Source: a virus. From it: a stretch of 64,000 nucleotides of DNA. A program made the translations under genes and the position numbers. The stretch is taken from IMG/VR virus record IMGVR_UViG_3300045988_126112, positions 96,001 to 160,000 of that record. One strand, written 5' to 3'. Every line of letters begins with the position of its first letter. Position 1 is the first letter of the stretch. The notes below the pieces were generated by a model. It was not told the DNA's origin. It did no database searches and worked only from the letters and a program-made list of their open reading frames with translations. Positions 3,689 to 58,359 of this stretch are shown piece by piece.

Positions 3689-3737
3689 ATATATATAAGT
3701 CTCAATACTATATTAAAAAAATTAGGAGGTAATATCT

Positions 3738-36500: not shown

Positions 36501-39500
36501 TCTTCATTATCTAAATTAGCAAAATCATTACCAACTTCTCCACTTCTTCCAAGCATAGATATTATAATATTAGGATCTACATTATCAGCTCCCATTACAG
36601 CAGCTATATTTTGATATAAATATTTAGCTTGGTCATGCACTTTATTATCTTTCCATTTACCTGATTGAACTTTAGCCATAGCTTCTCTTATTTGATTAGC
36701 TATTTGATTACGTTTATCACCTGTAAGTGAAGGAACAACAGTTTCACCTTTACCTACTATAGCTAATTGATCTTTATCTATTACTCCACCTTTAGCAAAT
36801 CCTGGTATACCAACTCTACCAAAATATCCTTTAACTGCATTTTGTATATCAGTAGTTAATCCATCCATAAAATCATTTAATACTGCTTGTTCATTTCCTG
36901 CTTCTATATTTCTTAAAGGATTTTGCATAAATGGTGTTATTCTAGGACCAGGTTTAAATTGGTTCTTATTACCATTTCCTTGTAAAAGATTTAATATTTG
37001 TTTCAAAGTACTATCTATACTTTCAGTAGTAGAAGTTTGAGTTTGCATAGATTCTTTTATAAATTTATTATCTGTAATAAATTTAGAACCACCTTCAGTA
37101 AGATTATCAGACCAAGGTCTATCTTTATCTAATTGATCTTCAGGTCTTTCTTTAGATTGATTATATTTCTTAATTCTATCAAAAGCATCTAAAGCTTCTA
37201 TATCTTCTACACCATTACCAGTATCTAAAGTTCCATCTTCTTTTAATCCTAATGCATCAGTAATAAATTCTGTAAGTTCATTAAATGTATCTTCAACATC
37301 TTCTATTTGTCTAGATAATTCTTTTATACGTTTATTAGCTGGAGCATTTTCAGACATTTTATAACCTGTACCTTTTTTATTATATATCTTTTGTTTAGCT
37401 CTTATAGCAACATCTTTCTTATCACTTATATCTTTTATAACACTATCTTTTTGACCTAATATATCTTTAATAGTTATACCTTCAAAATTATCAGCATAAT
37501 TTGAATCTCTATCTTTAAATAATTTATCTATAGATTTAGATACAAAATCATACATATCTCCATCTTCGCTGCCTAATATTCCTGCAAATGAATCAAGTAA
37601 TTTTTGTTTAGCAGTTTTATCATATTGTAAATCTAATCCAGCTATAGATCTTGGATCATTTTTATTAAGATTAGATTCACCAGTTTCAATCATCTTTTCT
37701 ATTTCAGCTATTTGTTTATTTAAATCTTCTGATTCTCCATTAAGAGAAACTTCACTTAATAAACCTTGATATCTATTATCTAATGTAGCTAAATATCTTA
37801 ATGCTGGTAAACTCATATCATTTGAACGAATTGATTGTTCAATTTGTTTAGTCAATTTATCTATTTTTTGTTTTTCTATCTTTTGTAATAATTCGGTATT
37901 GACTTTTCTCATACCATTCTTTTTACCATCTTTAGTAACTCCATTAAAGTTTCTAAATCTACCTATCTCAGTACCGTTTTGTTTTTCTAATTCTTTAAGT
38001 CTATCTTGAGATTTCTTTAATTGATCAACAACATTCTTATCTTTACCAGTTAACATTTCTTCAGCTAATCTACGTTGTTCTTCTATTGGAAGATTTTTAA
38101 ATTCAGAGCTTTGGAAATATTCATAAGCTTGTTCATTAAGAACATTTTGTCTTTGTCCTATATCATATTTATTAAAATTATTCTTATTAATAATATTCTC
38201 TCTAGCATTATCATAATCTAATAATTCTTGTTCGATATTTTGATTACTATCTCTCATTTCTTTTAATCTTTTCATTGCTTTATCTAATCTGTCATTAAGT
38301 TTAGCTATTGTATCTTTACATTTCTTTATTTCAGCTTTGACTTTTTTAGCTTTAATTTGTTGCTGTTTATTTCTACTTTTTCTTAAAGCTAAATATTGAG
38401 TATTGTAATCATTTAAATCTTTAGTAACTGATCTAATTTGTTGTCTTAAAGTCATTACTGACATATTAAGAGATCTATATTCTTTTATATCTTTTAAATT
38501 CTTAGTTTCTTCATCTAATTCTTTTAATTCAAGTTTAATATTATTTATATCAAACATATCATTTATATTATTAGATTCACCACTTTGAACTTTTCTAGCA
38601 TGCTCAATACTTCTCTTAGTTTTATCAAATTTTTGTTTTCCATTAAGATTATCATAATTATCAAAATCATAATTTCTTAATATCTTTGTAACTGTTGTAG
38701 TTATATCATCTTCATCAAATTCTTCTTGATTATTATCTTCTTTCTTTTTATCAAAAAAGTTTTTAGATTTGAATAAATTAGTTAATGGGCTAAATACATC
38801 TTTAACAGAATCAGTTATAGAAGTACCGATACCTTTAAGAGTATCACTCATTTTTTCTCTAACTTGTTTAAAGAAATCTTTAGCTCCTTGTTTCTTTTCT
38901 TCCAATCCAAACATTTCAGATATCTTACCATATATACCTTTTATAAGTCCTTTATCTTTATCTAATCCTAATCTATCTTTTAATGGATTAAGAATCTTTT
39001 CATCCATAAATTCATTGAAATGATTAAAAGATTTTTTCATTTCAAAAAGTAAATGATCTAATATGCCTTTAATAGATTTCTTACCATTTTCTCCTTCTTT
39101 ACCATATATTAATTCAAATAATCCTTGATCTACTTTTACAGCTAAATCAGTCATTATTGAAGAAGGACGTTTAATATATTTTTGAGCTTTTTCAGCAAAC
39201 TTATCAAATTTAGAACTAAATGATTTACCACTTAATCCCATTTCTTCTTTAAGTTTATCAAATTCAGTCTTTTCTTTTTCAGCTTCTTCTCTAAGTTTAT
39301 CTTTATTTTTATTAGTTTGAACGTTGCTTCTAACAGCTCCTCTAACAGTTTCATCATCTAAATCAGATATATTAACTAATAATTCTCCTTTTTCTAATCT
39401 TCTAGCTTGTTGTCTTAAAAATGTTTTATTAGCTCTATCTCTTTCAAGTGCTTTTTTAGTACTTTCACTCATCTTTTCATTTTCACTTCTTGTATCTTTT

Positions 39501-41671
39501 ATAGCTGTTTCAGATAGTGATCTAAAACCTCTATCATATCTTTGAGTATAAGTATTACCATCAGCATCAATTATATCGTAATTTTGTACTAAATCCAAAG
39601 GCATACCTTGGATATTTCCTCCACCACCAAATCCTTGAGCTGTTATACGTCTCATATAATTTAATTCTTTATACATACTTTGCATATAGAAGAATATATT
39701 CTTACCATAATTATCTTTAGTATCTAATAAAAGATTAGTATTAAAAGAAGTCTTTTCAGCTTTTTTATTTTTCTTACCATTTAATTCTTTAGCAAATTGA
39801 TTATGATTAGCATTATTAAATAAATATGCATATTGTCCACTTTTTTCTATATCTTTAAAACGTCTAGTTTGATTGCCATATTGATCTTGCATATCTGCAT
39901 TATATTGCATCATAATATTTCTTGGTAATTCTCTTAATATAGATTGTATAGCTAATAAATTCTTTTCACTAACACCATAATCTAAATATTTTTCATTAAA
40001 ATTATTCTTTTGATAATCAATTATTTCACCTTTGTTATATGAAGTTTCAAATAGTTTTTCTAAATCTTTAAAGAATTGATCATATTCTTCTTTACTACCA
40101 AAAGCTAAATTTTTATTAGCTATTTCTCTTACTTGTTGCATAGGTTCAGATGCAGCACTTTTCCAGAAAGAATTTTTCATATTATCAAATTCTTTTTTCA
40201 TTTCATCATAAGTAACAAATTTACCTGTTTCATAATTAAATGTAGTTTCTTGACTTCCTGTAAGAGCTGATAATATTTTGCTTAATTGTTGTGGTATAAC
40301 TTCAGTTAAAGCTTTTTGAGATTTACCATTCCAATCAACTTTACCTTTGTCATATTGAGAAACATCTACACTAGTTTTTGGTGAATTTTTTATACCAAAT
40401 ACTTTTCCAAGCATTTTTTCTAGCATACTATCTTCAGAATTAGACATAGTATTTAATTTTGTAACCATAGATGCAAAGAATCCACCTATAGTTTTATTCA
40501 TATTATTAAATGCTTTTTCTAAATCTTTAGGTGTCATTCTATTAATCATAGAAGATAATAAAGCACCATATGGGTTTGCAGCAAATAATGCAAGCATATT
40601 ACTATTTTCACCAGTACCTTGCATCATCATATTCCAAGCTCCACCTGTTAATTCATTAAGATAAGAATTTGAATTTTTCATTATTGTTTTACCATATGCA
40701 ACTAAATCAGGCATACCACCAGCATCAACAACATCATTATATCCAATTTTATTTTTCTTACCTTCTTCACTATTAGTAGTAGCTTCAATCTTTCTAGTAT
40801 TCTCAGCTATTTCTCTTAATAATGAAACTTGATCTTGTAAAGCTTTACTTGTATTTGTAAAGAACTCAGTTGAATTTGATAAATGAGGTGTCAAATTTTT
40901 ATCCAAGTATTGCATTACGCTACCAATATTACTATTCATAGCATCTAAATGACCATTCATAATACCAAAAGCTTTAGTATTTTGAGTATATAAAAGATTT
41001 GTATTTTTTATATTTACTTTAGATGAGTATTCAGCACTTCTAGCAACAGCCATAGATATAGCGTTAGCATTAGCTTGTGATGTATTTTCTATACTACTAA
41101 TAGTTGCTAATGTTTCTTGAGCAGTTCCACTAGTTTTACTACCACTAGATGATGAATCAGTAGCTTCATCATCCCAATTATCGTCAAAATCAGAAAAATC
41201 ATCGTCCCAATCATCTAGATTTAAATCTCCAAGATCAGCACTAAGATTATCATCAAATCCAGAGCCCATGTCATCACTAAGCCCCATTTGTTTCATTTCC
41301 ATTTTTTCAAGACGTTCTTTATTATAAAGATTACCTGTCATTATATCTTCTTTAAGTGCTCTTAATCCTACATCAGCAGCTTCATAGAATTTAGTTTTCA
41401 TGATAGCATCTAATCCACGTCTATAAGTAGTACGATAATCCATAGCAGATTTGTATATTGTTTTAAATAAATCATTATTAGTATCAGAGAAATCTGATAT
41501 AACTGGATTCATTTGTTTCATCTTTTCAACAGCAACATATGTTATAGATTTACCTACATTATAAAGATATCCTTGTCTTTTACCTAATTTTTGTTTATTA
41601 GTTTCAACTTTAGGTTTTCTACTAGCATTCTTCTTTAATTGCTTAACAGCACTAGGACTTTTATTTGCCAT
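24545..41671 (-). CDS. Giant tape-measure-like virion protein (5,708 aa) with a C-terminal array of nine predicted peptidoglycan or cell-wall hydrolase domains
   Basis: One uninterrupted 17,127-nt ORF with SD AAAGGAGGT. The N-terminal ~2,000 aa are K/E-rich and coiled-coil-like. It has Gly-zipper hydrophobic segments and W/G repeats typical of tape-measure proteins. Recognisable catalytic motifs follow (listed as separate domain features). Confidence 0.8.
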   Translation of the reverse strand: MANKSPSAVKQLKKNASRKPKVETNKQKLGKRQGYLYNVGKSITYVAVEKMKQMNPVISDFSDTNNDLFKTIYKSAMDYRTTYRRGLDAIMKTKFYEAADVGLRALKEDIMTGNLYNKERLEKMEMKQMGLSDDMGSGFDDNLSADLGDLNLDDWDDDFSDFDDNWDDEATDSSSSGSKTSGTAQETLATISSIENTSQANANAISMAVARSAEYSSKVNIKNTNLLYTQNTKAFGIMNGHLDAMNSNIGSVMQYLDKNLTPHLSNSTEFFTNTSKALQDQVSLLREIAENTRKIEATTNSEEGKKNKIGYNDVVDAGGMPDLVAYGKTIMKNSNSYLNELTGGAWNMMMQGTGENSNMLALFAANPYGALLSSMINRMTPKDLEKAFNNMNKTIGGFFASMVTKLNTMSNSEDSMLEKMLGKVFGIKNSPKTSVDVSQYDKGKVDWNGKSQKALTEVIPQQLSKILSALTGSQETTFNYETGKFVTYDEMKKEFDNMKNSFWKSAASEPMQQVREIANKNLAFGSKEEYDQFFKDLEKLFETSYNKGEIIDYQKNNFNEKYLDYGVSEKNLLAIQSILRELPRNIMMQYNADMQDQYGNQTRRFKDIEKSGQYAYLFNNANHNQFAKELNGKKNKKAEKTSFNTNLLLDTKDNYGKNIFFYMQSMYKELNYMRRITAQGFGGGGNIQGMPLDLVQNYDIIDADGNTYTQRYDRGFRSLSETAIKDTRSENEKMSESTKKALERDRANKTFLRQQARRLEKGELLVNISDLDDETVRGAVRSNVQTNKNKDKLREEAEKEKTEFDKLKEEMGLSGKSFSSKFDKFAEKAQKYIKRPSSIMTDLAVKVDQGLFELIYGKEGENGKKSIKGILDHLLFEMKKSFNHFNEFMDEKILNPLKDRLGLDKDKGLIKGIYGKISEMFGLEEKKQGAKDFFKQVREKMSDTLKGIGTSITDSVKDVFSPLTNLFKSKNFFDKKKEDNNQEEFDEDDITTTVTKILRNYDFDNYDNLNGKQKFDKTKRSIEHARKVQSGESNNINDMFDINNIKLELKELDEETKNLKDIKEYRSLNMSVMTLRQQIRSVTKDLNDYNTQYLALRKSRNKQQQIKAKKVKAEIKKCKDTIAKLNDRLDKAMKRLKEMRDSNQNIEQELLDYDNARENIINKNNFNKYDIGQRQNVLNEQAYEYFQSSEFKNLPIEEQRRLAEEMLTGKDKNVVDQLKKSQDRLKELEKQNGTEIGRFRNFNGVTKDGKKNGMRKVNTELLQKIEKQKIDKLTKQIEQSIRSNDMSLPALRYLATLDNRYQGLLSEVSLNGESEDLNKQIAEIEKMIETGESNLNKNDPRSIAGLDLQYDKTAKQKLLDSFAGILGSEDGDMYDFVSKSIDKLFKDRDSNYADNFEGITIKDILGQKDSVIKDISDKKDVAIRAKQKIYNKKGTGYKMSENAPANKRIKELSRQIEDVEDTFNELTEFITDALGLKEDGTLDTGNGVEDIEALDAFDRIKKYNQSKERPEDQLDKDRPWSDNLTEGGSKFITDNKFIKESMQTQTSTTESIDSTLKQILNLLQGNGNKNQFKPGPRITPFMQNPLRNIEAGNEQAVLNDFMDGLTTDIQNAVKGYFGRVGIPGFAKGGVIDKDQLAIVGKGETVVPSLTGDKRNQIANQIREAMAKVQSGKWKDNKVHDQAKYLYQNIAAVMGADNVDPNIIISMLGRSGEVGNDFANLDNEDQQKHFVKIAKITQQALNQRNEGVINNSGNQTDKGVAGDYTNIFSETFQVYKRAINKTMEAIVGDKDGKKDKKVSANAMKEVMGEAKLYGPDVVSGALLGGGASLLTGFIGGPLLGAAVGSGIALTKNSAKVQAMLFGEKEFDKDGNYIGRKGGLLPKDFVNTVAKTFPDMKKYGIVGLLSGFTALNPLGPVPGLLIGSALGVAKNNATIQNRLFGETGIIGEDRWNKFKKNLPNILAGAGVGFGLNMLHLSGPFGVLGSILIGSALGYASTTDKFKEMIFGTYNPQTGEQEGGLIGFMKDKIFSPFINWAKRDILKPLKDAFKPITKQIGIMFKTVFGGIAKGIINFFNKTLVVPIKEKVGKFLSTIFSPFKNLGKRLLGTVGRIISTPARILGGIGRATQRHQIRVGTADDMTAEERLNYMNNQNEMDFFYDQSQKIKRDSFNNAAEEMEKRFGKKDANKLRFLMRTGFHDQAQDLIKKRFGDVKDEESKKVMQNMLKDTSNYKKYYGSRILRDTYYERKEAADNVKNQVDEQFEAYKKANPNSKVTREEYLQNIYGDKYNKKVKDNGYNNDEADKILASMTNDQLGEFVNQYKAFGVTDKEYEKNKIKAGKEITALLKNMNIGANGKLKIKDRNIILGGLNYGQSEMAINYLRKLAKDQGIKLDDNADFNKIMDLMNEFKITEDLRLDKEKGKNAYERKVKELARNSTKLGKELSLETFGKLAISEDRLRNLKGKVITPEDIKDDERNKKITEIIKGITDLNKSLTDKQDETNKLLEQIRDFKTGDEFQQRRANSKIELDDAVHRDEQVLSLDQKKRQILLRRIGIKSLDDQPDFVRKMPLADLQTYVKKYRTVSYKDIMKQYREEAEAKKAKEDEVKKTGEEEAKKQQDETAVEKIKKSVDTSEVKDGLSDDMKKSILDAEGNEVVMKRDSKTGQYETDSTDSSTRKSIRIAQRLREKQEAFYDSFSGLFKKNEKEEDEEKKSGGWLSKLLMALGIGKGLLGRAKGLLGGILGRGAIGGLFTRGIFGTIGKGALVIGGLMYLPEIIDLFKTKIGPAISENWDTTIKPWLTEEALPRLKDGLVLLVQEIPSLLKGTVKFIGSELIPSILKGMGWDIGTDDQEVTYDENGNPVNKGGKGTTSAAAVIGNTAVRSTVRKGARYASAVKTSVAKNIAKEGEVKTLTKSLSKEGVEEITEGAVKSGFKGGAKDIARAGFKTAKDFILHPVKTSVKGAVKGAKTVTNAGGKILGNKFLKMDAKRIAKRGGLSNKMEGKILTNVANSGLVSQLLNWAKNQFTKLFTNSTVVNLLGKVKNIPVAKALLERAVPKMLEVISKGAVKMSGTALARVVGGIGTGGLVTLGFAVYDFISGFKDARNIMGITEDNVPFGYRIISGVVKTIQGLSIIATLLPTKTIMSILINVLSGIGVDMGNIKQQQAQAQQELKEYNEKNGTNFSLEEYNKEVKGHKGLFDRAKDTAKWAGGKISETGKWIGNGAKNLGGKAIKGLKWLDQATLKGIGKWVDVNKWVGGKALEGLKWVNDNGINWAGDKMAGALTAMGNGAGQLWNGAKWLGNQAINGIGAGGKMLENGFNTAKNWTGNMLLSGVKGGANLMAKGLSAAANGIVDTPKMIGSLYNSISDWGKGILDGLTKQLSGWYDKNIKPVLDGIGKKFNDIKDWCSKFIQDPIKAIGEGFQSLLDWFKNKFGWVMKSKDWVSDKWNDAKSAAGNAWDTVKNGVKNVFTKKPSKDTNAKVSDIKTVNGMKVGKGEGDVVNGNPYFSQKQASGQFGQMINDAGCGPTSTAMALSKVTGKDISPESIAKDAYKNKTWDSEGARGNMFATEAKKYGVKTVSSGGNFEKFDKMVSAGIPTAVSGTLGKGEDSPYTKAGHIVTVFGKDKNGNYLVNDPRGKKYSKAYSKEELMNGFRDSWSFGKGDDDSSNSVPSSERVIGNVRNTIKSVAPSALSSSFRKKSTLALNHITKSVSGTGMIESASKVLEEIFTKIFNNDTIINLLGDASSSQYSAASVLLGNFVPQVIKKLKMNCEKNKSINLNRYLRAIVSNANVSNISFLISNFVNAFNNPAKYIGIYDTYTTGMKACAAILATINGRFVIDKLLPNTDWAKLIQDYVMPVFGEGPQDIDTLKKQADKIVKEFNLKSMSTNATTDTITSIAENLTGSTSASGGILNKIKNGAQSLFSKVTGGVSNVVHNVASGVKSVVKKAGNAVGNVYNTVKNAVASGLNWFGGLFGKGEYVGKGKDPAEVSQTDDSYLGVNNFPYFSQYKDYNTDKKKPELSETGCGPTSAAMVLSKVTGKMITPNEVADETYNAGVYDDNGSTDSMFPYLGNKYGIKVKSIDNFEQIKQYASRGVPMVISGEGGNLYGTDSDGHIVAMFGRNKNGYIVNDPSSINGSKSYDESQLKKGFKHAWVFGDTGYKEDIKDAEQVMLSSKDSKALALEDPNFAGKGSDPTTLTYVNGFPYWSQVAFGGNILKAGCGPTSAAMAFGQVTGKTLNPKDMCAQGKSHGWSPTAGVTDSSRLFNYYGKKYNTSVTYISSLSKTKELAAKGYPLIIDGRCSKSSNWSKNCLLTPYGPNGHYLALFGKTKDGYVINDPRGSRFSGARSESQLSTGFRFAFKIGDKTYKVDESKVKKVGSTDGQESSGSSSEGVSEDTGAEATGSNGDDFFGDMATAAINFGKKLFGFDISEASTDTTSSSSSGSPGSECTRYTGTNYKVGKSVKASFTAYYPHNDSMEGGFYDCKGNPLNPAEQTCAAPADVPVGTKIKISNTGTSLDGKIYTVTDRGGAIKIVNGVYRIDILVSASDYKNFQNCKGNITFMGKDGSAGKGPDIVDLTNPYYGMGEGVDWGYFCDPSKGSITSYFSEKRSQYATARGDHGALDYNVHFQPLYAPKSGTVYSENEHSSYGNSLTIKTNSGNTFYRVAHMKSKKVKKGDSVKQGQLLGISGATGHVSGPHVHLEVLKGGTSKSRNGVDPLNYYTETKGKHYKLKGSSLSFKEYMDKVGGEITEVNDGSDGTSDGTSDGTATEDTTATTTAGDFFGDMATAAINFTKKLFGFNIDEPAASDATTDDSSSSEYGSSSSDESNISAKNVAEKILKFTKAKGASDAASAGVLGNAWCESSFNPKADGKDKTGTYFGLFQWIRKYNNFDKLKKIAKSMNLEWSDTDAQMAFLWDQLQDSTHKVWLNQEYPKKGLNGFLNETDAYQAGSKFNKFFERGVGGGTRAKTAQTIYKKYLKDGKLVNFENFVSTGKGDDERYGKGDDKVKLSSKIIEYALSFLNKGFYYSQPNRDYINKNRNASDCSSFTHHVFDRAAGTEIGGYTEEQYLSSRGTKVKKGDLKPGDIILFKNTRSSRNGTTKYKDNVSHSSLYLGDNKYIESTTSDSSGFSGIRVANLGSSWSQNHWLTGKRFIDGDKKVSPTIKNPNKLTKFEKATGSYTLPEASVGNYSASHGGASSGDDTSTGSTAGEFFSDMATAAINFSKKLFGFDIDTPAASDATTDSSSSSDGSDLSSGTDYSSVKTKVSSSDFDKSVILGDSIAKGFKDMKVLPSSRVVATIGDTVAKGISDGNVAKAAAKKPPVIITHYGTNDADWISGGGSFNADWYSKQYTKLINKIKKESPKSKIVLTQTFTPSGGKTKKWVPVVQKALPGIASKNSVNIVDSRSIDKPSYRGSDHIHPISKEFYTKWLADIKSKITSEGKGEDTDLTKDIDRYFQDTLDGVKSSDFGIRDNEFHTGVDYAAKENTPIKSPVSGKVVENLKDKKYGFGNTLVVRDKKGIDHRFAHMKDQSSYGLGTKVRQNDIIGNVGSTGRSTGSHLHYEVTDNGKSLNPSKYYDKTAHGGTKNSLDKVTLSFPDSDQKVDANISNLNKGIDEKVLKQLITIIVSVLNKVANNTENIKEVVDLLTEIQKSITGKPATKTKTTKPTTKTSSDTDKTKTQKIFSLLQKGMNSTDSDTSNTQAILDILEILATE
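24950..25340 (-). other. M23 metallopeptidase domain, copy 2 (within the giant CDS; approximate bounds)
   Basis: 'HTGVDYAA...' and 'GSTGRSTGSHLHYEV', the HxxxD and HxH motifs of the LytM/M23 family. Confidence 0.8.
25390..25880 (-). other. SGNH/GDSL-type esterase domain (within the giant CDS; approximate bounds)
   Basis: Block I 'ILGDSIAKG', block III 'HYGTNDA', block V 'SDHIHP' (DxxH). This pattern fits SGNH hydrolases such as peptidoglycan O-acetyl-esterases. Confidence 0.7.
25961..26066 (-). repeat. Intragenic linker cassette, copy 3 (encodes 'AGEFFSDMATAAINFSKKLFGFDIDTPAASDATTD')
   Basis: About 93% nucleotide identity to copy 2 over ~107 nt by hand alignment (8 mismatches). Confidence 0.9.
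26270..26640 (-). other. NlpC/P60 cysteine peptidase domain (within the giant CDS; approximate bounds)
   Basis: 'ASDCSSFTHHVF' (catalytic Cys), 'KPGDIILF' and 'VSHSSLYLGDNKYIE' (catalytic His). Confidence 0.75.
26770..27190 (-). other. Lysozyme-like domain ('phage tail lysozyme' or transglycosylase type; within the giant CDS; approximate bounds)
   Basis: 'AGVLGNAWCESSFNP...GLFQW' resembles the G(I/V)LGN..(E)S motif of tape-measure-associated lysozyme-like domains. Confidence 0.55.
27251..27357 (-). repeat. Intragenic linker cassette, copy 2 (encodes 'AGDFFGDMATAAINFTKKLFGFNIDEPAASDATTD')
   Basis: Shares 'atctgttgtagcatcacttgcagctgg...aaatccaaataatttctta.taaagtttatagcagctgtagccatatc' with copy 3. 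Confidence 0.9.
27535..27900 (-). other. M23 metallopeptidase domain, copy 1 (within the giant CDS; approximate bounds)
   Basis: 'DHGALDYN' and 'GATGHVSGPHVHLEV' (HxxxD and HxH). Confidence 0.8.
28050..28340 (-). other. 3D (Asp-Asp-Asp, MltA/RlpA-like) domain (within the giant CDS; approximate bounds)
   Basis: 'FTAYYPHNDSMEGG...CAAPADVPVGTKIKI...GKIYTVTDRGGAIK...RIDILV' matches the typical layout of 3D domains in Firmicute cell-wall proteins. Confidence 0.6.
28385..28468 (-). repeat. Intragenic linker cassette, copy 1 (encodes 'DDFFGDMATAAINFGKKLFGFDISEASTDTT')
   Basis: Shares the core 'atatcaaatccaaataatttcttaccaaagtttatagcagctgtagccatatctcc.aagaaatca' with copies 2 and 3. Confidence 0.9.
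28600..29100 (-). other. C39-like (papain-fold) cysteine peptidase domain, copy 3 (within the giant CDS; approximate bounds)
   Basis: 'FPYWSQ...AGCGPTSAAMAF' (Cys codon about 29024-29026) and 'NGHYLALFG...YVINDPRG' (His codon about 28724-28726). Confidence 0.65.
29215..29700 (-). other. C39-like cysteine peptidase domain, copy 2 (within the giant CDS; approximate bounds)
   Basis: 'FPYFSQ...TGCGPTSAAMVL' (Cys about 29609-29611) and 'DGHIVAMFG...YIVNDP' (His about 29342-29344). Confidence 0.65.
30715..31190 (-). other. C39-like cysteine peptidase domain, copy 1 (within the giant CDS; approximate bounds)
   Basis: 'NPYFSQ...AGCGPTSTAMAL' (Cys about 31112-31114) and 'AGHIVTVFG...YLVNDPRG' (His about 30836-30838). 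Confidence 0.65.
35700..36240 (-). other. Cluster of three Gly-zipper hydrophobic segments (within the giant CDS)
   Basis: 'GALLGGGASLLTGFIGGPLLGAAVGSGIAL', 'GLLSGFTALNPLGPVPGLLIGSALGVA' and 'AGAGVGFGLNMLHLSGPFGVLGSILIGSALGYA'. Such segments are typical of tape-measure proteins. More occur near 33350-33545 and 32390-32470. Confidence 0.7.
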
Positions 41672-41714
41672 TTTGATTACCTCCTTTTACAAAAAATAAA
41701 TATTATCTTAATGT

Positions 41715-41760
41715 TAAAAAACAAATTTGAAGGAGATACAGCGTTAGCCGTATCTCCTTG
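41715..41760 (-). terminator. Terminator-like hairpin immediately upstream of the giant gene
   Basis: 10-bp stem AAGGAGATAC/GTATCTCCTT, followed on the minus strand by CAAATTTGTTTTTT. Confidence 0.6.
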
Positions 41761-41946
41761 TAGAGTGTAGAAATTATTCAATATGTTTGAATAACAATGT
41801 GGTACACTAAGTGTCGGGGAAAGTTGAACACTTAGTGATTCAAGAGTTAAAGCTTTAGTATATAGCTCATCATATAAAGTTTTTTGGGTCGGGAGTTTCT
41901 ATAAAAAACTTTTAAATATACTAGCCTACTTTTATGTTAGTTTAAT
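41761..41946 (-). other. Structured non-coding leader between the 174-aa gene and the giant gene
   Basis: No ORF on either strand. It has 10-bp stems at 41805-41814/41828-41837 and 41876-41885/41903-41912. Both loops carry GTCGGG(G)A on the + strand. Confidence 0.6.
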
Positions 41947-42659: not shown

Positions 42660-42890
42660 TTACATGTTTTTCTTTACACTTTTCTTTTTATCTATATTAT
42701 GTGTAATTGAACAATAATGCCAATTTTCACATCTATACATTCGACCTCCATTACTATCTACATCATATAGTATCCATTCTTTCCCACAATAAGGACATAT
42801 ACCTTTATTCCATTGTTTTTTCTCTTTTCTTATATCAGATATCATTGAACCTATAAGACATACAATTACAAATACTATTAACCATTGCAT
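42660..42890 (-). CDS. Small membrane-anchored zinc-ribbon protein (paralog A)
   Basis: ATG 42890 is 9 nt after AGGGGG (the track start at 42917 is less likely). It has an N-terminal TM helix 'WLIVFVIVCLIGSMI' followed by 'KKQWNKGICPYCG...YRCENWHYC'. Confidence 0.65.
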   Translation of the reverse strand: MQWLIVFVIVCLIGSMISDIRKEKKQWNKGICPYCGKEWILYDVDSNGGRMYRCENWHYCSITHNIDKKKSVKKNM

Positions 42891-42894
42891 ATAC

Positions 42895-43155
42895 CTATAC
42901 CCCCTGTCTCTTATCAAAGTTATAAGTCATTTCACACATATGTCCTTCTTTACATAAGTATATTCTTTTTTCTGTTAAATTATAATCTTCTTCAGATGTA
43001 TGATATATCCATGCATTTCCACATTTTCTACATATACCTTTATTCCATTCTCTTTTTTCTTTTAGTATAGTATATAGTATACCACCTACTATAAAAGATA
43101 CTAAACCTCCACAAAATATTAAAGCTACAATATCTACTATTTGATCTGTATTCAT
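42895..43155 (-). CDS. Small membrane-anchored zinc-ribbon protein (paralog B)
   Basis: TM helix 'IVALIFCGGLVSFIVGGILYTIL' followed by 'KREWNKGICRKCG...YLCKEGHMC'. The 'EK(K/R)(Q/E)WNKGIC..CG' block is shared with paralog A. ATG 43155 is 9 nt after GGAGG. Confidence 0.65.
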   Translation of the reverse strand: MNTDQIVDIVALIFCGGLVSFIVGGILYTILKEKREWNKGICRKCGNAWIYHTSEEDYNLTEKRIYLCKEGHMCEMTYNFDKRQGV

Positions 43156-43168
43156 ATACATATACCTC

Positions 43169-43399
43169 CTATTTTCTTCTTTCTTCTAGATTGATTATTT
43201 TACATTCTTCTTTTATTCCCTTTCTTTTACTATCATATTTATTACATATACTAGCATGTATAATAGGATACTCTATAAGTTTCCTATTTATACTACACAT
43301 ACATGTTGCATTAAATATGTACGTATTAGAATGTTTACACTTCCTACAATCCTTTAAGTATTGATTACCTTTACACTTCTTAACTATTTTCTTTATCAT
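43169..43399 (-). CDS. Small Cys-rich protein (76 aa)
   Basis: SD AAAGGAGGA. Eight Cys residues ('CKGNQYLKDCRKCKH...CMC...C...C'). First gene of the minus-strand block, downstream of the motif at 43450-43461. Confidence 0.65.
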   Translation of the reverse strand: MIKKIVKKCKGNQYLKDCRKCKHSNTYIFNATCMCSINRKLIEYPIIHASICNKYDSKRKGIKEECKIINLEERRK

Positions 43400-43449
43400 A
43401 AGCTATGTCCTCCTTTATTTATATAAAAGTACTTATTTTATTACATTAA

Positions 43450-43461
43450 TATAATATATAA
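43450..43461 (-). promoter_or_regulatory. Conserved promoter-like motif, minus-strand variant
   Basis: The reverse complement reads 'TTATATATTATA', about 50 nt upstream of the first gene of the minus block (start 43399). Confidence 0.45.
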
Positions 43462-43510
43462 AAGAAAATAATATTAAAAAATATTTTTTTACAATGTAAC
43501 TAACATTTCG

Positions 43511-43820
43511 ATAAGAAGGAGGACATAGGGGTGGGCGGTCGGGAAAGATTGTGAATGGGATAAATGATAGAGAAGAGTGAAGGATAAGAGTGAAGACAAG
43601 GGAACAGGAAGAAAAGACCCGACCCGAGAGGGGAGGGAGATAAGCAGTAACAAGATAGATACGATAGAAAAGAGAGATAGATAAGAGAGAAAGGGAATAG
43701 AACGTGAAAATGAAAGAAAAGAGAGATACAAGGAGTGAAAGGGAGTAATGGATCCTGGGAACTAGAGAACTTAGGAACAGGGAACTTGAAGTTAAGGAAT
43801 GGGTAGAGAAGAACAGGCTT
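43511..43820 (+). other. Non-coding polypurine (GA-rich) tract of about 310 nt
   Basis: My hand count finds about 65 pyrimidines in 310 nt on the + strand (~80% purine) in a genome otherwise rich in T. The longest + strand ATG ORF is 12 codons. It lies between divergent gene blocks. Confidence 0.9.
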
Positions 43821-43873
43821 TTATCAAATAGAAAAAATAAACATTAATATAAGTAAAAAAGGAGGTAAAGGAA

Positions 43874-44149
43874 ATGTTAGTAAACAATATAAAAGATATA
43901 GAATATAAAAAAGTATATGGAATAGTCGATGATAAAGGAATAAAAAGACTATATATACTAGCAGAAGAGAATGAATGTAATATGAAATTCTCAAGAGTAT
44001 TAGTAATACAAAATAATAATAAAAATAGATTAGCAATGGAAGATAGTAGACATAGACATGGATTAAAAATCTATACTAAAAAGAAATTAAAACAAATGGT
44101 TGAAAGTGGACAAATAGAAGAATTAGTAGAATTAAAAGTTCATGAATAA
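43874..44149 (+). CDS. Hypothetical small protein (91 aa)
   Basis: Strong SD (AAAGGAGGT, 8 nt spacing). Followed by the terminator or attenuator hairpin at 44156-44191. Confidence 0.7.
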   Translation: MLVNNIKDIEYKKVYGIVDDKGIKRLYILAEENECNMKFSRVLVIQNNNKNRLAMEDSRHRHGLKIYTKKKLKQMVESGQIEELVELKVHE

Positions 44150-44155
44150 TATTAT

Positions 44156-44191
44156 AAAGGATATAGTAAATATATCCTTTATTTTTATTTT
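44156..44191 (+). terminator. Terminator or attenuator upstream of the RNAP beta-like gene
   Basis: Stem AAAGGATATA/TATATCCTTT followed by ATTTTTATTTT. Confidence 0.7.
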
Positions 44192-44211
44192 GTCAAGGAG
44201 GTGGTATACTA

Positions 44212-47200
44212 ATGATATTATTAGATGAAGTACAAAAAATGAAATTAATAAAGAAACCATTTTATTTACCTTTAAATAAAGATAAGAAACATGGTAAAGC
44301 AGTATTATTAATGACTCCAATGTATGATAGTACTATAAGATTATTAAATAATCCATTAATAATAAAGAAACATTATGAATCATATTATTTAGAAAGAGAT
44401 ATGATGTATGTAATTAATCATGAAGGACATATAGATTATGATGCTACAGATGGATTGATTAATGAATATAATGATATTCTAGATGATATTAATGAAGCTA
44501 CATTAGCTAATCCTTATATAGGAAACTATAGTAATAATCTTAAAGAAAAGAATAAAGTAAGAAAAAGAAAGATGAGAAAATCTATTCATAAAATGAATAG
44601 AATAGGAAATTATGAAAAAAATAATGTAGGAATAGAAGGAGATAAAAAAGCTATAGGTAAAGAAGTAGTTAAAGATGATCCAGATAAGATATCAGATGAT
44701 AAATCAGTAGAAGAAATTTATGTTGGATATTCTGGAGATATGTATGTAGAAGATAATAATTCTCTTATAAGATATAATATAGGAGATAATAAGAATCTAT
44801 TATATATATTAGAAGCAGATCAAATATATAATAATCAATTAAAGAAATTATTATATAATGATAGAATGAAACAAAAAGGAGAATTGTTTGATATCTATAA
44901 TATGATTAAACAAGATGTAGATTATATCAAATATTGCTATATAGATATTAATAAATATAAAGCAAGAAATATGTTTATTGATACATTCTATTATAATGAA
45001 ATATTCTTAAATAAGAATGTATGGAAAAGAGATAAAGCTATTAATTTATACTTTGATTTAATGGATAGATTCTTAGATAATCCTAAAATAGAAAAAGATT
45101 ATGGTAGAATAGAAACAGTATTAGTACCAGTATTAGAATGGGTAAGAGAAGATGATGATTTAGATTTTACAAAGAGTATAAATTTCGTATCTATGGTATT
45201 AAGATTATTAAAGAATAAAGCTCATAATTCTTTACTTAATAAATGGAGAGGAATAAACTTTGTATTTATGACTAGTAAAGGATATTTTACTTGTGATTTA
45301 GGTTCTTTAGAAGGAAAAAGAGATAAAGCTAAATTTAGAGTATTACTTAGTAAATTAATTAATGGTGATAGTATTCAAGATGAAGGTAAAGAAGATTCAC
45401 CAGGAGCTATTAAACAAGCTATTACAGATAAAATAGAAGATGATGCTAAGATAAAACTTTATAATGCAACTGGAGATGCTGATAAAAAAGAAGCTAGTAA
45501 GAAAGAATTAGAAGAAAAGATAGATAAAGCTGCTGAATTATCATCTTCAGTAGATGGAGCATTAGATAAATTAGATGATGATGAAAGAGTTAAACAAATC
45601 TTAATGGATTTAGCTGCAGAAGAAGAAAATAAAGTTAAACTTAATGCTGCTAGAACTTCAAGAATGTTAAAAGCACAAGACAAATCAATGGAAAAAGTTA
45701 TTAATGGTAGATCAATAAGAGATATATTATCAGCTCAAAAAGAAGAAGTTGAAATACCTGAAACATCAATAAATATAGATTCAGTAAATGATGAATGGAA
45801 ACATATGACATTTATGAATTTTGAAGATGCTTATAATATAGATGAAGACATAATGGCTATTATATATTCATTCTCAGAAAAATCAGATCCAATAGCTATA
45901 TTAGATGTTGATGTACAAGACACTTCAACTTCTGAAGATAAAAAAGAAACTTATACAGTTAAAATGGAAGATGCTCAAGGTAAAAGATTTACTATTAAAT
46001 TTGATATACCTAAATTTATAGATAATAAATTCATGTTACTTAGAGGTAATGAAAAGACTATGAATGGGCAATTAACTTTAATACCAATATGTAAAACAGA
46101 TGAAGATACAGTACAAATTGTTTCAAACTATAAGAAAATATTTGTTCATCCATATGGTTCATCAGTAGGAAAATCAATGCCATCAGCAGATGTATTATAT
46201 AAATACTTAAATAAATATGATGGCAAAGATATAAAAATAGTTCCAGGTGATAATACTAAAACATGTCATAAATATGATTTACCAATAGACTATATAGATT
46301 TAGCTAAAGTATATAATACTATAGAAACTGATAAATATATCATATATTTTAATCAAGATGCTATAAGAGAAAAATATAAAGTTGATGATAAAGAAGAAGG
46401 TATTCCATTAGCAGTAGAAAAAGCTACAGGTAAAGTAAGATATTATCGTGGAGCTGCTGATACAACATGTACAAGTGCTATAATAAGTTTATTATGCCAA
46501 TCTAAAAATGGTGATAAACATAGAGAAGGAATTAATAATCAAAAGATTGCTAATAAGTATATGTATAGTAAAGCTAATATACTTAATGTAAAAATACCAT
46601 TAATAGTTATAATGGCTCATTCAGAAGGATTAGAAGAATCAATGAAAAAAGGTAATATTAATTATAGTATACAAGAAAAGAGATATAAACCAAATATGTA
46701 TGAAGATGTAATTAAATTTAAAGATGCATATATTGTTTATAGAGTAGATTATAATTCATCTTTATTAATGAATGGTCTTAAAGAATGTCCAACTGAAGAA
46801 TATTCAATTAAAGAAATGAATAATAAATCAATGTATATAGATTTCTTAGAATTATATGGTGGTAGAATATTATCAGATGGTCTAGACAACTTCTATGACT
46901 TAATGATAGATCCAATAACTAAAGAAGTTCTTGAATATTATAAACTTCCAACTGATTATTGTGAATTATTAGCTTATGCTAACTTCTTATTAGCTGATAA
47001 TAAATATGTAAAACATACAGATATGCGTTCAAGAAGATATAGAACTAATGAATTAGTTGCTGGTTATGCTTATCAAGCTCTTTCAGAATCTTACGGAGCA
47101 TACAAAACTGAACTTAAAAAACGTGGTACAGCTACAATGACAATAAAACAAACTGCTATTATAGATAAAGTAATGCTTGACCCAACTTGTGCAGATTTAT

Positions 47201-48729
47201 CATCATTAAATGATTTACAAAATGCTGAAGCTATAAATTCTGCAACATATAAAGGATTAGCTGGAATGAACTATGATAGATCTTATGATTTGGATAAACG
47301 TTCTTATGACCCATCAATGCTAAATCTTATAGGAATGGCTACAGGATTTGCTGGTAATGTTGGTTTAACAAGACAAACTACTATGGATATGAATATAGAA
47401 GGTAAAAGAGGATATGTTAAAACTATAGATGGTGATACTAGTCAATTATCAGTAACCAAATCATTCTGTCCTACTGAAGGATTAACTCCATTTGGGGCTA
47501 CAAGAGATGACCCATTTAGATCTGCGATGAACTTTATTCAAACTAGTAAACATGGTATGAGAATAAAGAATGCTATGCCATTATTAATGAGTAATGGTAC
47601 TGATATGGCATTACCATATTTAACTTCAAATACATTCTCTTTCAATGCTAAAGCTAATGGCAAAGTTATTGAAATTACTAATGATTATATGATAGTAGAA
47701 TATAAACTTACTAAAGAAGAAAAAGAAAGAGGATTACCAGAAAAAGATTTTATAGATTTAAGAAATACAATCAAGAAAAACTCTAATGGTGGATTCTATC
47801 AAGCAATAAAATTAGATACAGATTTAAAAGTAGGAAATACTTTTAAGAAGAATGAAGTAATAGCATATGATAAATTATCATATTCATCTAAAGTAGGTAA
47901 TACAGGAGATTTATCATATAATTTAGGTGCATTATGTAAAGTTGCTATGCTTACAACAGATGAAGGATTTGAAGATAGTGCCATAATATCTGAATGGTTA
48001 TCAGATGCATTAGCATCTAGAGTTGTTGTTAAAAAAGAATATGTATTACCAAAGAATACTAATATATATTACATGGCTAAAAAAGGTCAAGAGATTCAAG
48101 AAGGAGAACCTTTAATGATTTTCCAAAATGCATTTGAAGATGATGATGTAAATTTATTATTAAAGAATCTTAGTGATGATGAAGAACTTATATCAGATTT
48201 AGGTCGTGTTCCAATTCGTTCTAAAGTTACAGGAAGAATAGAAGATATAAAAGTATATCGTACTGTAGAAAAAGATGAATTATCAGAATCTTTAAGAAAA
48301 GAAGTTAATAAAATAGAAAAACCTATAAATGATATTAAGAAAGCTATGAATAATACAGATACTTATGATGCTAGTAAACTTGAACCAACATATGTACTTG
48401 AAAAAAGTGGTAAATTAAAAAATGTTGATGAAGGTGTATTAGTTGAATTCTATTTATCTTATTATGATAAGATGTCTGTTGGAGATAAACTTATATATTA
48501 TTCAGCATGTAAAGGTGTTGTAAAAGATATATTCCCAGCAGGAAAAGAACCTTATTCATTATTTAGACCTGATGAAAAGATTCATACATTAGTTCCTTAT
48601 TTTGGTGTAGCAAATCGTATAGTTTGCTCAATAGTGAATACTATACCTATGAATAAAGTATTAATAGAATTAGATAGAGCAGTTAAAGATTTATGTGATA
48701 TTCCATATAAATATTTAGATGAAGAGTAA
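44212..48729 (+). CDS. Highly divergent multisubunit RNA polymerase beta-subunit homologue with a ~590-aa N-terminal extension
   Basis: These blocks align by eye with bacterial RpoB signatures. 'KFMLLRGNEKTMNGQL' matches 'F.INGaERV..SQl'. 'FCPTEGLTPFG' matches 'ICPIETPEGPNIG'. 'TRDDPFRSAMNFIQTSKHG' matches 'HDDANRALMGANMQRQA'. 'GFEDSAIIS' matches 'NFEDSILVS'. 'GDKLIYYSACKGVV' matches 'GDKMAGRHGNKGVI'. 'LVPYFGVANRI' matches 'LNPLGVPSRMN'. Confidence 0.7.
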   Translation: MILLDEVQKMKLIKKPFYLPLNKDKKHGKAVLLMTPMYDSTIRLLNNPLIIKKHYESYYLERDMMYVINHEGHIDYDATDGLINEYNDILDDINEATLANPYIGNYSNNLKEKNKVRKRKMRKSIHKMNRIGNYEKNNVGIEGDKKAIGKEVVKDDPDKISDDKSVEEIYVGYSGDMYVEDNNSLIRYNIGDNKNLLYILEADQIYNNQLKKLLYNDRMKQKGELFDIYNMIKQDVDYIKYCYIDINKYKARNMFIDTFYYNEIFLNKNVWKRDKAINLYFDLMDRFLDNPKIEKDYGRIETVLVPVLEWVREDDDLDFTKSINFVSMVLRLLKNKAHNSLLNKWRGINFVFMTSKGYFTCDLGSLEGKRDKAKFRVLLSKLINGDSIQDEGKEDSPGAIKQAITDKIEDDAKIKLYNATGDADKKEASKKELEEKIDKAAELSSSVDGALDKLDDDERVKQILMDLAAEEENKVKLNAARTSRMLKAQDKSMEKVINGRSIRDILSAQKEEVEIPETSINIDSVNDEWKHMTFMNFEDAYNIDEDIMAIIYSFSEKSDPIAILDVDVQDTSTSEDKKETYTVKMEDAQGKRFTIKFDIPKFIDNKFMLLRGNEKTMNGQLTLIPICKTDEDTVQIVSNYKKIFVHPYGSSVGKSMPSADVLYKYLNKYDGKDIKIVPGDNTKTCHKYDLPIDYIDLAKVYNTIETDKYIIYFNQDAIREKYKVDDKEEGIPLAVEKATGKVRYYRGAADTTCTSAIISLLCQSKNGDKHREGINNQKIANKYMYSKANILNVKIPLIVIMAHSEGLEESMKKGNINYSIQEKRYKPNMYEDVIKFKDAYIVYRVDYNSSLLMNGLKECPTEEYSIKEMNNKSMYIDFLELYGGRILSDGLDNFYDLMIDPITKEVLEYYKLPTDYCELLAYANFLLADNKYVKHTDMRSRRYRTNELVAGYAYQALSESYGAYKTELKKRGTATMTIKQTAIIDKVMLDPTCADLSSLNDLQNAEAINSATYKGLAGMNYDRSYDLDKRSYDPSMLNLIGMATGFAGNVGLTRQTTMDMNIEGKRGYVKTIDGDTSQLSVTKSFCPTEGLTPFGATRDDPFRSAMNFIQTSKHGMRIKNAMPLLMSNGTDMALPYLTSNTFSFNAKANGKVIEITNDYMIVEYKLTKEEKERGLPEKDFIDLRNTIKKNSNGGFYQAIKLDTDLKVGNTFKKNEVIAYDKLSYSSKVGNTGDLSYNLGALCKVAMLTTDEGFEDSAIISEWLSDALASRVVVKKEYVLPKNTNIYYMAKKGQEIQEGEPLMIFQNAFEDDDVNLLLKNLSDDEELISDLGRVPIRSKVTGRIEDIKVYRTVEKDELSESLRKEVNKIEKPINDIKKAMNNTDTYDASKLEPTYVLEKSGKLKNVDEGVLVEFYLSYYDKMSVGDKLIYYSACKGVVKDIFPAGKEPYSLFRPDEKIHTLVPYFGVANRIVCSIVNTIPMNKVLIELDRAVKDLCDIPYKYLDEE

Positions 48730-55735: not shown

Positions 55736-55742
55736 AAATGTT

Positions 55743-55772
55743 ATGGGGATAAGCTTAATTGCTTATCCCCAT
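55743..55772 (+). terminator. Possible terminator after thyX
   Basis: 12-bp stem ATGGGGATAAGC/GCTTATCCCCAT with a weak U-tract. Confidence 0.45.
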
Positions 55773-58238: not shown

Positions 58239-58359
58239 TAAAAAAATATTCACATCTAACTATATAATAGCACAATAATTTTCAGATTTTGTGTTAATTG
58301 TAAAATATTTCTCTGCCTTTGATTTTTATTGTTTATTTTTGAATTGATCTTTTTAACCC

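Follow-up and report, generated by a model that had tools for sequence, protein, structure and literature searches.

The DNA analyzed here is a 64,000-nt stretch of a viral genome (IMG/VR virus record IMGVR_UViG_3300045988_126112, positions 96,001 to 160,000), which we refer to as the window; its source is an AR9/PBS1-like jumbo phage of ~245 kb that is common in human-gut metagenomes. At a point where two gene blocks diverge, the window contains a purine- and G-rich non-coding tract (43513–43839, plus strand). To the left of this tract, beyond an AT-rich divergent promoter spacer (43400–43512; 15% GC) that is a possible DNA unwinding element, lies the first leftward gene (43169–43399, minus strand; 76 aa), which has no Pfam or PHROGs family match and is probably early. 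To the right begins an operon (43874–48729, plus strand) that comprises a 91-aa gene (43874–44149) and a 1505-aa RNA polymerase beta-like gene (44212–48729). These flanking starts, 43399 on the minus strand and 43874 on the plus strand, are as given in the initial annotation of this DNA, which had singled out the tract for its composition. The element is real, strongly non-random, conserved, non-coding and outside current RNA families.

Exact counts agree with the hand estimate made in the initial annotation (~80% purine, about 65 pyrimidines in 310 nt, and ~82% purine in 43511–43740): positions 43511–43820 hold 136 A and 109 G (79.0% purine) against 41 T and 24 C, so that the pyrimidines number exactly 65, and the sub-stretch 43511–43740 is 81.7% purine. 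Among all 310-nt stretches of the 64 kb, the purine maximum falls at 43509–43818 (0.794, with a runner-up of 0.713 and a window mean of 0.499, sd 0.095). The same stretch is also the G maximum, and its 35.5% G, against a mean of 13.6% (sd 3.8), bears out the G-enrichment that had been noted by eye. The GC content is 43% in the tract and 27% across the window, and the coding strands of the phage reach 59% purine at most. The tract is the strongest compositional outlier of the 64-kb window, the part of the ~245-kb genome to which the statement of uniqueness applies. Since the other divergent junction in the window (16268/16426) has no such tract, the element is not generic to divergence points.

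Phage AR9 uses two classes of promoter: early promoters of the form AAATATATATTAT-(6N)-G+1, which are used by the injected virion polymerase (PMC5312081), and late promoters of the form AACA-(6N)-T-A/G(+1), which are used by the non-virion polymerase (PMC7598289, PMC5312081). A promoter of the late type, P1, that fits this experimentally defined consensus is situated directly ahead of the tract (43502–43513, plus strand; AACA-TTTCGA-T-A, with AACA at 43502–43505, T at 43512 and a predicted +1 at A43513), and the compositional bias sets in exactly at the predicted start site. Upstream of P1 lies the element AAAAATATTTTTTTACA (43477–43493, plus strand), which is unique in the window, near-matches occurring at chance frequency. 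On these motif matches, the tract is probably transcribed from its own promoter, P1, and the predicted transcript, or leader, up to the next promoter (43513–43839) is 79% purine and 34% G. That next promoter, P2 (43840–43851, plus strand; AACA-TTAATA-T-A, predicted +1 at 43851), is also of the late type and belongs to the operon itself: the 91-aa gene begins 23 nt downstream. Equivalents of P2 (AACA-N6-TA before the first plus-strand gene) were found in five related loci (L001, L002, L003, L004 and L008; related and other contigs are designated by L numbers throughout), and a third AACA-N6-TA (43812–43823, plus strand) lies inside a conserved block at the 3′ end of the tract.

The late-type sequence TAACA-N6-TA is not over-represented in the window (22 sites, with 33 expected); for nine of the 22, a gene on the same strand starts within the next 120 nt (binomial P = 2e-7), the other late leaders in the window are 25–45 nt long, and seven lineages keep the AACA-N6-TA copy that precedes the giant virion gene. 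The early-type sequence ATATATTAT-N6-G, the core of which is identical to the AR9 early consensus, occurs eight times (1255, 3671, 5286 on the minus strand, 16377 on the minus strand, 43459 on the minus strand, 59327, 61699 and 63912) against 1.8 expected, a number reached in none of 100 shuffles, and most copies stand ahead of genes. The copy at 43459 (43444–43459) lies 45 nt upstream of the leftward 76-aa gene and is a predicted promoter for the virion RNA polymerase. Sigma-70 promoters are at chance level (14 found, 17.4 expected). As judged from these motifs, the phage shares the promoter grammar of AR9 in both classes. Recognition of late promoters by the AR9 polymerase holoenzyme needs uracil in the template strand. 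As relatives of the window phage encode thymidylate kinase, ThyX and dUTPase, its own DNA probably contains thymine.

The predicted P1 transcript begins with AAGAAGGAGGACAUAG and soon enters a G-box, GGGGTGGGCGGTCGGG (43528–43543, plus strand, which is the non-template strand), at +16 to +31 of P1; the pattern of this window-type box can be written CATAGGGGTGGGYGGTCGGGAA. The G-box is the sole G3+N1-10G3+N1-10G3+ motif, the type associated with R-loop initiation, on either strand of the 64 kb, and it gives the window's top G4Hunter 25-mer (1.64). The equivalent G cluster gives the top 25-mer in L001–L004 and L009 and the second in L008, while the top 25-mer of L005 also falls inside the tract. 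The box is invariant in 20 close genomes, and a G cluster is present at the same position in all deep lineages. Downstream of the initiation zone, the best G density is 37% in the window, L002 and L003, 34–36% in L140 and L008, and 24% in L005.

We also estimated, along the window, the nearest-neighbour stability of an RNA:DNA hybrid minus that of the DNA:DNA duplex. The 100-nt and 300-nt stretches that favour a hybrid most begin at 43518 and 43517, respectively, 5 and 4 nt past the predicted P1 start, with values of -24 kcal per 100 nt and -64 per 300 nt against window means of +5 and +16 (z ~ -4). The best 100-nt hybrid stretch begins 0–13 nt from the P1 start in the window, L002, L003, L008 and L009; in L004 it begins 22 nt upstream and spans the start, and in L005 it is found deeper in the tract. 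The spacer on the other side of the start (43400–43512) ranks second to third among the least stable duplexes in the 64 kb (99.95th percentile), AT-rich promoter spacers being common in this genome.

Relatives of the locus were gathered from Logan, ENA, NCBI and JGI-derived protein collections. Loci with a polymerase 98–56% identical form a syntenic block, and in all eight syntenic loci, which represent seven deep lineages, we found P1 at this site within the same succession of elements: a T-run with (T)ACA, then (A)CTAACA-N6-TA, then a G cluster. The T-run followed by (T)ACA upstream of P1 is kept in all deep lineages. The initial annotation had made the case for the element depend on its recurrence at this position in related genomes, and it does recur: the unit of P1, G cluster and purine-rich body is co-located in the seven deep lineages and in the 20 close genomes. 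It is absent from this position in the more distant L006 and L007 and has no counterpart in PBS1, as described below. Beyond ~50 nt, the tracts of the deep lineages cannot be aligned with one another. In six of the seven, purine (0.62–0.79) and G (0.21–0.35, against locus G means of ~0.13) are kept; L002 and L008 are less purine-rich than the others (62–64%). The exception is L004, which has only P1 and a G cluster of ~45 nt, and the length of the tract ranges from this ~45 nt to ~600 nt among lineages.

The close set consists of 20 genomes with 14 distinct sequences, 11 of them full length, and column counts were taken from the full-length sequences. In the spacer and P1, four of 113 columns are variable; over the tract's first 48 nt, which extend to GGGAAAGA, inspection of the alignment by eye shows no variation. 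The middle of the tract (43614–43769) is variable in 31 of 166 columns (19%) and contains indels of 1, 7 and 16 nt. At the 3′ end, a conserved block, GGAACAGGGAACTT...GGAATGGGTAGAGAAGAACAGGCTTTTATC (43770–43830, plus strand), is kept even in the 76%-identity lineage L147, and seven of the 70 columns of 43770–43839 vary; rather than acting as part of a functional RNA, this block may regulate the operon promoters at the DNA level. Every close sequence is 78–80% purine. Relative to the closest relative, identity is 99–100% in 43405–43604 and 80–87% in 43605–43804, the genome mean being 96.7%. Going by this pattern of conservation in close and deep lineages, the promoter, the G-box and the composition are constrained, whereas the sequence of the body is not.

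The short internal repeats reported in the initial annotation are present: a 17-nt unit occurs three times, and two 29-nt units are 83% identical to each other; in addition, GA-rich direct repeats of the form GATAGA(A/G)AAGAG(A/T)GA... (43566–43728, plus strand; families D1, D2 and D4, with periods of 9 and 13 in Tandem Repeats Finder) make up much of the fast-evolving body. Such repeats indicate growth by duplication and lend some weight to the notion that the tract has no sequence-specific function, being a spacer that lengthened as GA-rich units slipped or were duplicated, its purine bias kept up by transcription-associated mutation bias or by selection directed only against signals containing pyrimidines, such as stops, starts, promoters and terminators. 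Few segments diverge as fast as the body when close genomes are compared, and the length of the tract varies among lineages (~45 to ~600 nt), which would fit as well. We nevertheless consider this notion unlikely: the G and purine bias survives complete sequence turnover in six of seven deep lineages, the first 48 nt and the spacer are near-invariant in 20 genomes whose neighbouring genes are 79–81% identical, and the bias, which far exceeds the 59% purine of the richest coding strands, begins exactly at the predicted start.

We found no conserved open frame in the tract that has both a start codon and a ribosome-binding site. TAA, TAG and TGA stops are present in all three plus-strand frames, the longest open stretch being 37 codons, and since every frame holds all three stop types, an alternative genetic code or a hidden plus-strand open reading frame (ORF) is ruled out. 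The 80-aa minus-strand ORF, which the initial annotation had rightly dismissed as a low-complexity artefact, is broken in close relatives by the indels of 1, 7 and 16 nt; long open frames on the minus strand are an expected by-product of a plus strand that is poor in pyrimidines. A tiny leader ORF (GTG-GGY-GGT...) following the Shine-Dalgarno (SD) sequence at the 5′ end was likewise rejected, as neither its length (3–16 codons) nor its sequence is conserved and it is absent in L009. Public gene calls include an ORF of 67–71 aa (L001 9518–9721, L140 2841–3056, L148 2856–3059) that corresponds to about 43740–43930 of the window, where it runs across the 3′ boundary of the tract into the beginning of the 91-aa gene; this is probably an erroneous prediction that spreads from one database to another. 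Although the frame over the conserved 3′ block is open for 72–74 codons in 12 of the 14 distinct close sequences, we think it very improbable that a small basic protein of this kind is encoded there. In the window and in L147 the frame stops early and has no start codon; because of the 16-nt indel, the N-terminal halves use different frames in L140-type and L148-type sequences; no spaced SD sequence precedes it, whereas real genes here carry AAGGAGG 6–9 nt upstream; and the product has zero Pfam or PHROG matches.

Known RNAs were not detected either. Rfam 15 gave zero matches at gathering thresholds in the window or in six relatives, zero at E<=10 on 43400–43900 and zero at E<=1 on L140, L147 and L148, and a tRNA/tmRNA search found none. 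This agrees with the remark in the initial annotation that no standard phage feature looks like the tract, as does the lack of an equivalent in PBS1.

The SD-like words in which the tract had been said to abound are AAGGAGG (43516–43522), GGGGAGGGAG (43630–43639), AAGGAG (43730–43735, not ~43720 as first placed) and GGGAG (43741–43745), the other three having been located correctly. The tract holds 17 GGA, five GGAG and three AGAGAGA runs. GGA, however, is expected 19.8+-2.5 times in dinucleotide-preserving shuffles of the tract, and neither the SD-like and GGA words together (z -1.9 to +0.6) nor GGAGG, AGGAG, GGAG and GAGG (z -1.9 to -0.1) are enriched over composition; L002 and L008 have few SD-like words. 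The abundance of these words is due to the G+A composition and carries no extra signal.

The predicted tract RNA is nearly unstructured (-38.7 kcal/mol over 327 nt, or -0.12 kcal/mol per nt). A small hairpin, CCCGACCC-GAGA-GGGGAGGG (43618–43637, plus strand), has a GNRA tetraloop and a stem with a 2x2 G/A internal loop; it is predicted at -12.7 kcal/mol in 96% of the ensemble (z -3.75), and close genomes differ in its block only at the loop, which reads GAGA in some and GGGA in others, each of the GNRA type. Its CCCGACC is complementary to GGTCGGG of the G-box. A pairing of the G-box with the CCCGACC of a separate transcription unit at 41.9 kb, described below, was rejected, since it is not conserved even in a 97%-identical relative. 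The RNAs of L002 and L008 fold with z of only -1 to -2 against shuffles, and a secondary structure common to the lineages was rejected because the predicted helices are lineage-specific.

The distal face of Hfq binds AG repeats in Gram-positive bacteria, and CsrA binds GGA. A stand-alone, abundant non-coding RNA that titrates a host purine-binding factor (the anti-SD of the 30S subunit, Hfq or CsrA), a role that the initial annotation had proposed in the form of an anti-SD, ribosome or protein sponge, would be in keeping with a single-stranded RNA that is ~80% purine and holds the GGA, GGAG and AGAGAGA words counted above, and whose 5′ 13 nt match the ribosome-binding region of the adjacent early gene exactly. 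We regard such a role as quite improbable. No word exceeds composition-matched shuffles (z -1.9 to +1.5), there are no GGA sites in hairpin loops of the CsrB/RsmZ kind, the words are not conserved in the less purine-rich and more structured RNAs of L002 and L008 (62–64% purine), and the RNA has neither a terminator that would define it as a discrete molecule nor an Rfam match.

The identity at the 5′ end reflects a perfect 13-nt inverted repeat, CTATGTCCTCCTT at 43403–43415 and AAGGAGGACATAG at 43516–43528; the first 16 nt of the predicted P1 RNA thus carry the SD-plus-spacer of the ribosome-binding region of the divergent 76-aa early gene. This repeat occurs in all close genomes and not in the deep lineages, and a core, GGACATAGG, is common to L002 and L008. 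Two further inverted repeats, one of 11 nt (43499–509 / 43871–881) and an AT-rich one of 19 nt, were discarded: they are not collinear, and the 11-nt repeat is at about chance frequency by a rough estimate.

Two readings of the tract are foremost, one at the level of RNA and one at the level of DNA. The first, to which we give slightly less weight than to the second, is that the tract is a 5′ leader of the virion RNA polymerase beta operon. In Firmicutes, an unused SD sequence near the 5′ end of a long leader, the stabilizing SD (STAB-SD) of the Bacillus cryIIIA type, binds the 30S subunit and stabilizes the mRNA. By analogy, the 5′ SD without an ORF would act as a stabilizer of the STAB-SD type that holds the 30S subunit and blocks 5′-exonucleases, while the unstructured, U-poor purine body would resist endonucleases and provide ribosome standby sites. 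Consistent with such a leader, the tract appears to have its own promoter, neither the window nor any lineage shows an intrinsic terminator on the way from P1 to the first plus-strand gene, although the phage uses terminators elsewhere (a classical one is found 1.7 kb leftward, at 41759–41730), and AAGGAGG stands at +4 to +10 of the predicted P1 RNA, SD-like G-rich words being present in the first 25–30 nt of most lineages. The RNA is nearly unstructured, and 5′ untranslated regions in AR9 reach 491 nt (PMC5312081).

Several observations are nonetheless difficult to reconcile with a leader, which the initial annotation had also considered. The operon already has P2, a promoter of the same class with an ordinary short leader of 23 nt, and the other late leaders in the window are 25–45 nt long; L004 retains only ~45 nt of the tract, and L006 and L007 express the same gene without it; and the SD-like words, as described, do not exceed composition. 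A promoter-proximal, G-rich homopurine run is expected to cut read-through (PMC5499740), and a leader leaves an identical G-box in unrelated phages, to be described below, unexplained. Moreover, unlike the tract, a STAB-SD is a single short element that neither needs nor explains 300 nt of purine-rich sequence and a cluster of G-runs.

The second reading, which we favour, if only tentatively, is that an R-loop forms over the tract during transcription, which may make it a replication origin primed by transcription. The phage's non-virion multisubunit RNA polymerase would read P1 at the junction of a leftward early block and a rightward block for virion RNA polymerase and nucleotide metabolism, and the tract would be the initially transcribed, non-coding region. 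Starting from the G cluster, the nascent G-rich RNA would pair again with the C-rich template in the wake of the polymerase, and the hybrid would then extend through the purine-rich body, because a hybrid of purine-rich RNA and pyrimidine-rich DNA is more stable than the DNA duplex. A persistent R-loop would be the functional product and would most likely open or prime an origin beside the AT-rich spacer, while transcripts escaping the hybrid would continue into the RNA polymerase beta operon and form its long leader. Selection would keep an architecture rather than a sequence or an RNA fold, namely (i) a meltable AT-rich spacer; (ii) P1 with non-template G-runs within 30–60 nt; and (iii) a purine-rich, pyrimidine-poor body of 40 to ~600 nt. 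Such a combination of features is known to give rise to R-loops during transcription.

The features expected of an R-loop origin that we found at the locus are a promoter reading into the element, with transcription predicted, a G-run cluster near the start, and adjacent AT-rich DNA; a G-dense extension (at least 40% G) is not present, yet the hybrid energy is the most favourable of each locus. In a system studied experimentally, stable R-loops arise when a G-rich homopurine run is placed on the non-template strand at 9 bp from a promoter; transcript yield falls more than 10-fold, and RNase H relieves the effect, which is strongest within ~10 bp of the promoter (PMC5499740). A herpesvirus oriLyt provides an example of a transcription-primed origin of similar logic (PMC12599619). 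The initial annotation had suggested an origin that forms either an R-loop or H-DNA. The anatomy fits the R-loop half of this suggestion best; H-DNA is unlikely because the longest uninterrupted purine run is only 15 nt, a pyrimidine occurring about every 5 nt in the tract. The fit of the R-loop is one of physical plausibility, and transcription from P1, formation of the R-loop and a role in replication are what we infer from the DNA sequence.

Against a co-transcriptional R-loop and an origin we have to set a number of observations. The G density after the G-box, 37%, is under the rule of the quantitative model of R-loop-forming sequences (QmRLFS; at least 40% G over at least 100 nt), and the whole-tract G is only 21–23% in L005 and L009. 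The hybrid energies, which were estimated with nearest-neighbour parameters (Sugimoto 1995; SantaLucia 1998), largely restate the G-richness. DnaA boxes or iterons were not found at the window locus, where only GA-rich low-complexity repeats occur: there are zero TTATCCACA within one mismatch in 43300–43900, and the total in the window equals chance. L006 and L007 (48% polymerase identity) do not have the unit at this position, and in PBS1, of which 98.7% of the genome was scanned, there is no non-coding G- or purine-rich tract, the peaks being Gly-rich coding repeats. The third-position GC skew of the coding strand in blocks A–E of the window (0.20, 0.12, -0.05, 0.22 and 0.23; 64 of ~245 kb) is not sorted by the predicted leading and lagging strands of an origin at 43.45 kb. 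P1 is of the late class, so that its firing would need prior synthesis of the non-virion polymerase, an order of events that would fit the logic of T7 or of T4 middle-mode transcription. Finally, the lack of a terminator and the perfect SD sequence at +4 to +10 fit a plain mRNA leader equally well.

We scanned IMG/VR for the window-type G-box as GGGGTGGGYGGTCGGGAA and obtained five hits. Two lie in 60%-GC contigs, in which a match is expected by chance, and that in L161 (46% GC) is also chance-like; the remaining two are in the low-GC contigs L160 and L162, where by our estimate chance is a very unlikely explanation. Scans of JGI metagenomes and GTDB used GGACATAGGRRGGGTGGGYGG, the form of the box in L002 and L008, and their negative results concern that form only. 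In L162 (IMGVR_UViG_3300010163_000071, 33% GC), the same 18-nt G-box is preceded by AACA-N6-TA ~30 nt upstream and followed by ~300 nt of 66%-purine non-coding DNA with repeated CGAACAG(G/A), which ends in a hairpin terminator. Directly upstream of this unit (3691–4600), a 910-nt, 23%-GC non-coding region carries an iteron-like array with 12 copies of RATTCA (1.0 in shuffles) and 11 of TGATTA (0.9 in shuffles), many of them at a spacing of 36–38 nt; the array looks like the replication origin of an unrelated low-GC phage. In L160 (IMGVR_UViG_3300037847_003971, 40% GC), 22 nt identical to the window, CATAGGGGTGGGCGGTCGGGAA (1519–1540), are situated in a divergent intergenic region just past a sigma-70-like promoter, TTGACA-N17-TACCAT, and a further unrelated contig, L163 (1240–1261), has 20 nt in common with the L002/L008-type box. 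If these three are true instances, they are suggestive of the G-box as a portable module at transcript 5′ ends, and the position of the L162 box beside an origin-like array would then favour the interpretation of the tract as an origin. It must be weighed against this that the homology of L162 past the G-box is weak and that its neighbouring proteins are unrelated to those of the window phage.

The 1505-aa product is 24–36% identical (tblastn) to annotated RNA polymerase beta subunit genes of jumbo phages of Staphylococcus, Bacillus (PBS1), Listeria and Yersinia (phiR1-37-type). Phages in GenBank gave no DNA match, the closest polymerase being ~31% identical; a protein-based search of IMG/VR found no relatives, and a promoter-pattern scan of IMG/VR returned chance hits only. 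Near-identical contigs of 239–246 kb are present in many human-gut metagenome assemblies. Their break points differ, which suggests circularly permuted (or circular) assemblies, and none is at the tract locus; as contigs from different samples break elsewhere, there is no fixed genome end at the tract. A packaging (pac) or partition site at the DNA level, another of the roles first suggested, would account for a unique, conserved non-coding element with short repeats. It is nonetheless the role to which we give the least credence, given these break points, the fact that terminase and partition genes are not adjacent, and a strand-specific G bias starting at a promoter, which such a site does not explain. 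The 91-aa neighbour is indexed in 153 blocks of a public assembly collection, and one copy is found inside an NCBI metagenome-assembled genome labelled Romboutsia timonensis (a low-GC member of the Peptostreptococcaceae), which is either a hint to the host or a binning artefact.

Leftward of the tract, small genes without a known family are followed by a 5708-aa virion protein and other structural genes. The 5708-aa ORF (24545–41671, minus strand) is read as a giant multi-hydrolase virion or ejection protein, the product in relatives having Peptidase_C39_2, two M23 peptidase, phage lysozyme, NlpC/P60 and GDSL lipase domains. Among the small genes are those for two paralogous proteins of 85 and 88 aa (42660–42917 and 42895–43161, minus strand; the ORFs overlap by 23 nt), which have an N-terminal hydrophobic segment, the motif KE(K/R)..WNKGIC..CG..W....C and no family match, and whose copy number varies among relatives (76-, 83- and 95-aa versions). 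A second small non-coding transcription unit (41720–41940, minus strand) lies between a 174-aa gene and the giant gene. It consists of a late-type promoter, ACTAACA-TAAAAG-TA (41927–41939), ~190 nt with hairpins, and the strong intrinsic terminator at 41759–41730 with its T-run, and is followed by the giant gene's own conserved promoter, TAACATTAAGATA (41704–41716). This unit evolves fast: the 97%-identical relative matches it at 76–87%, and other lineages have a much shortened version or none. Two more long non-coding gaps are found in the nucleotide-metabolism block, at 55736–56159 (424 nt) and 58239–58517 (279 nt), upstream of a ribonucleotide-reductase-like gene and of the following gene, respectively; neither has an Rfam match, and the former is among the window's least stable duplex regions.

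We know of no mapped origin for jumbo phages that carry their own multisubunit RNA polymerases. A 2026 review of jumbo phages does not mention replication origins. It is conceivable, though in our opinion doubtful, that the tract is the first identifiable origin of a jumbo phage encoding RNA polymerases, in which the phage's own polymerase would fire P1, the R-loop would prime or open the genome, and the G-box (18–22 nt) would be a portable module that nucleates R-loops or G-quadruplexes. The tract offers a candidate origin in a common gut phage that is open to experiment. If the R-loop interpretation is true, the phage transcription machinery would be tied directly to the start of replication, and G-cluster R-loops, as employed in mitochondria, plasmids, herpesviruses and switch regions, would also be used by 27%-GC phages. 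If the tract is a leader, it would be an extreme, composition-defined and fold-free one. Under either interpretation, an unclassified conserved non-coding element is added to phage biology.

Among known systems, the mitochondrial light-strand promoter (LSP) and conserved sequence block II (CSBII) (PMC3488243) resemble the locus in that a promoter reads into non-template G-runs, a stable hybrid or G-quadruplex forms, and transcription either primes or reads on. However, CSBII is short and lies ~100 nt or more from LSP, whereas the phage G-box has ~300 nt of purine-rich DNA following it and would be transcribed by a multisubunit phage polymerase. RNA II of ColE1 is similarly a transcript from a dedicated promoter that forms a persistent hybrid of G-rich RNA and C-rich DNA and serves as a replication primer (PMC3016281); it differs in being a structured 550-nt RNA under the control of the antisense RNA I, while the window RNA has hardly any structure and shows no sign of an antisense partner. 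For class-switch and similar R-loop sequences, the QmRLFS model requires at least 40% G, as against 37% in this 27%-GC phage, and those systems are not replication origins, but in them, too, the R-loop starts at G clusters and spreads through a G-dense region, and the window's one initiation motif is located exactly at P1. Lastly, although the minimal origins oriF and oriG (uvsY) of T4 measure ~100 bp, and the AT-rich segment of the window locus is upstream of the promoter, unlike theirs, these origins likewise combine a promoter for reprogrammed transcription machinery with a downstream R-loop element, and their transcript also serves gene expression (PMC3016281).

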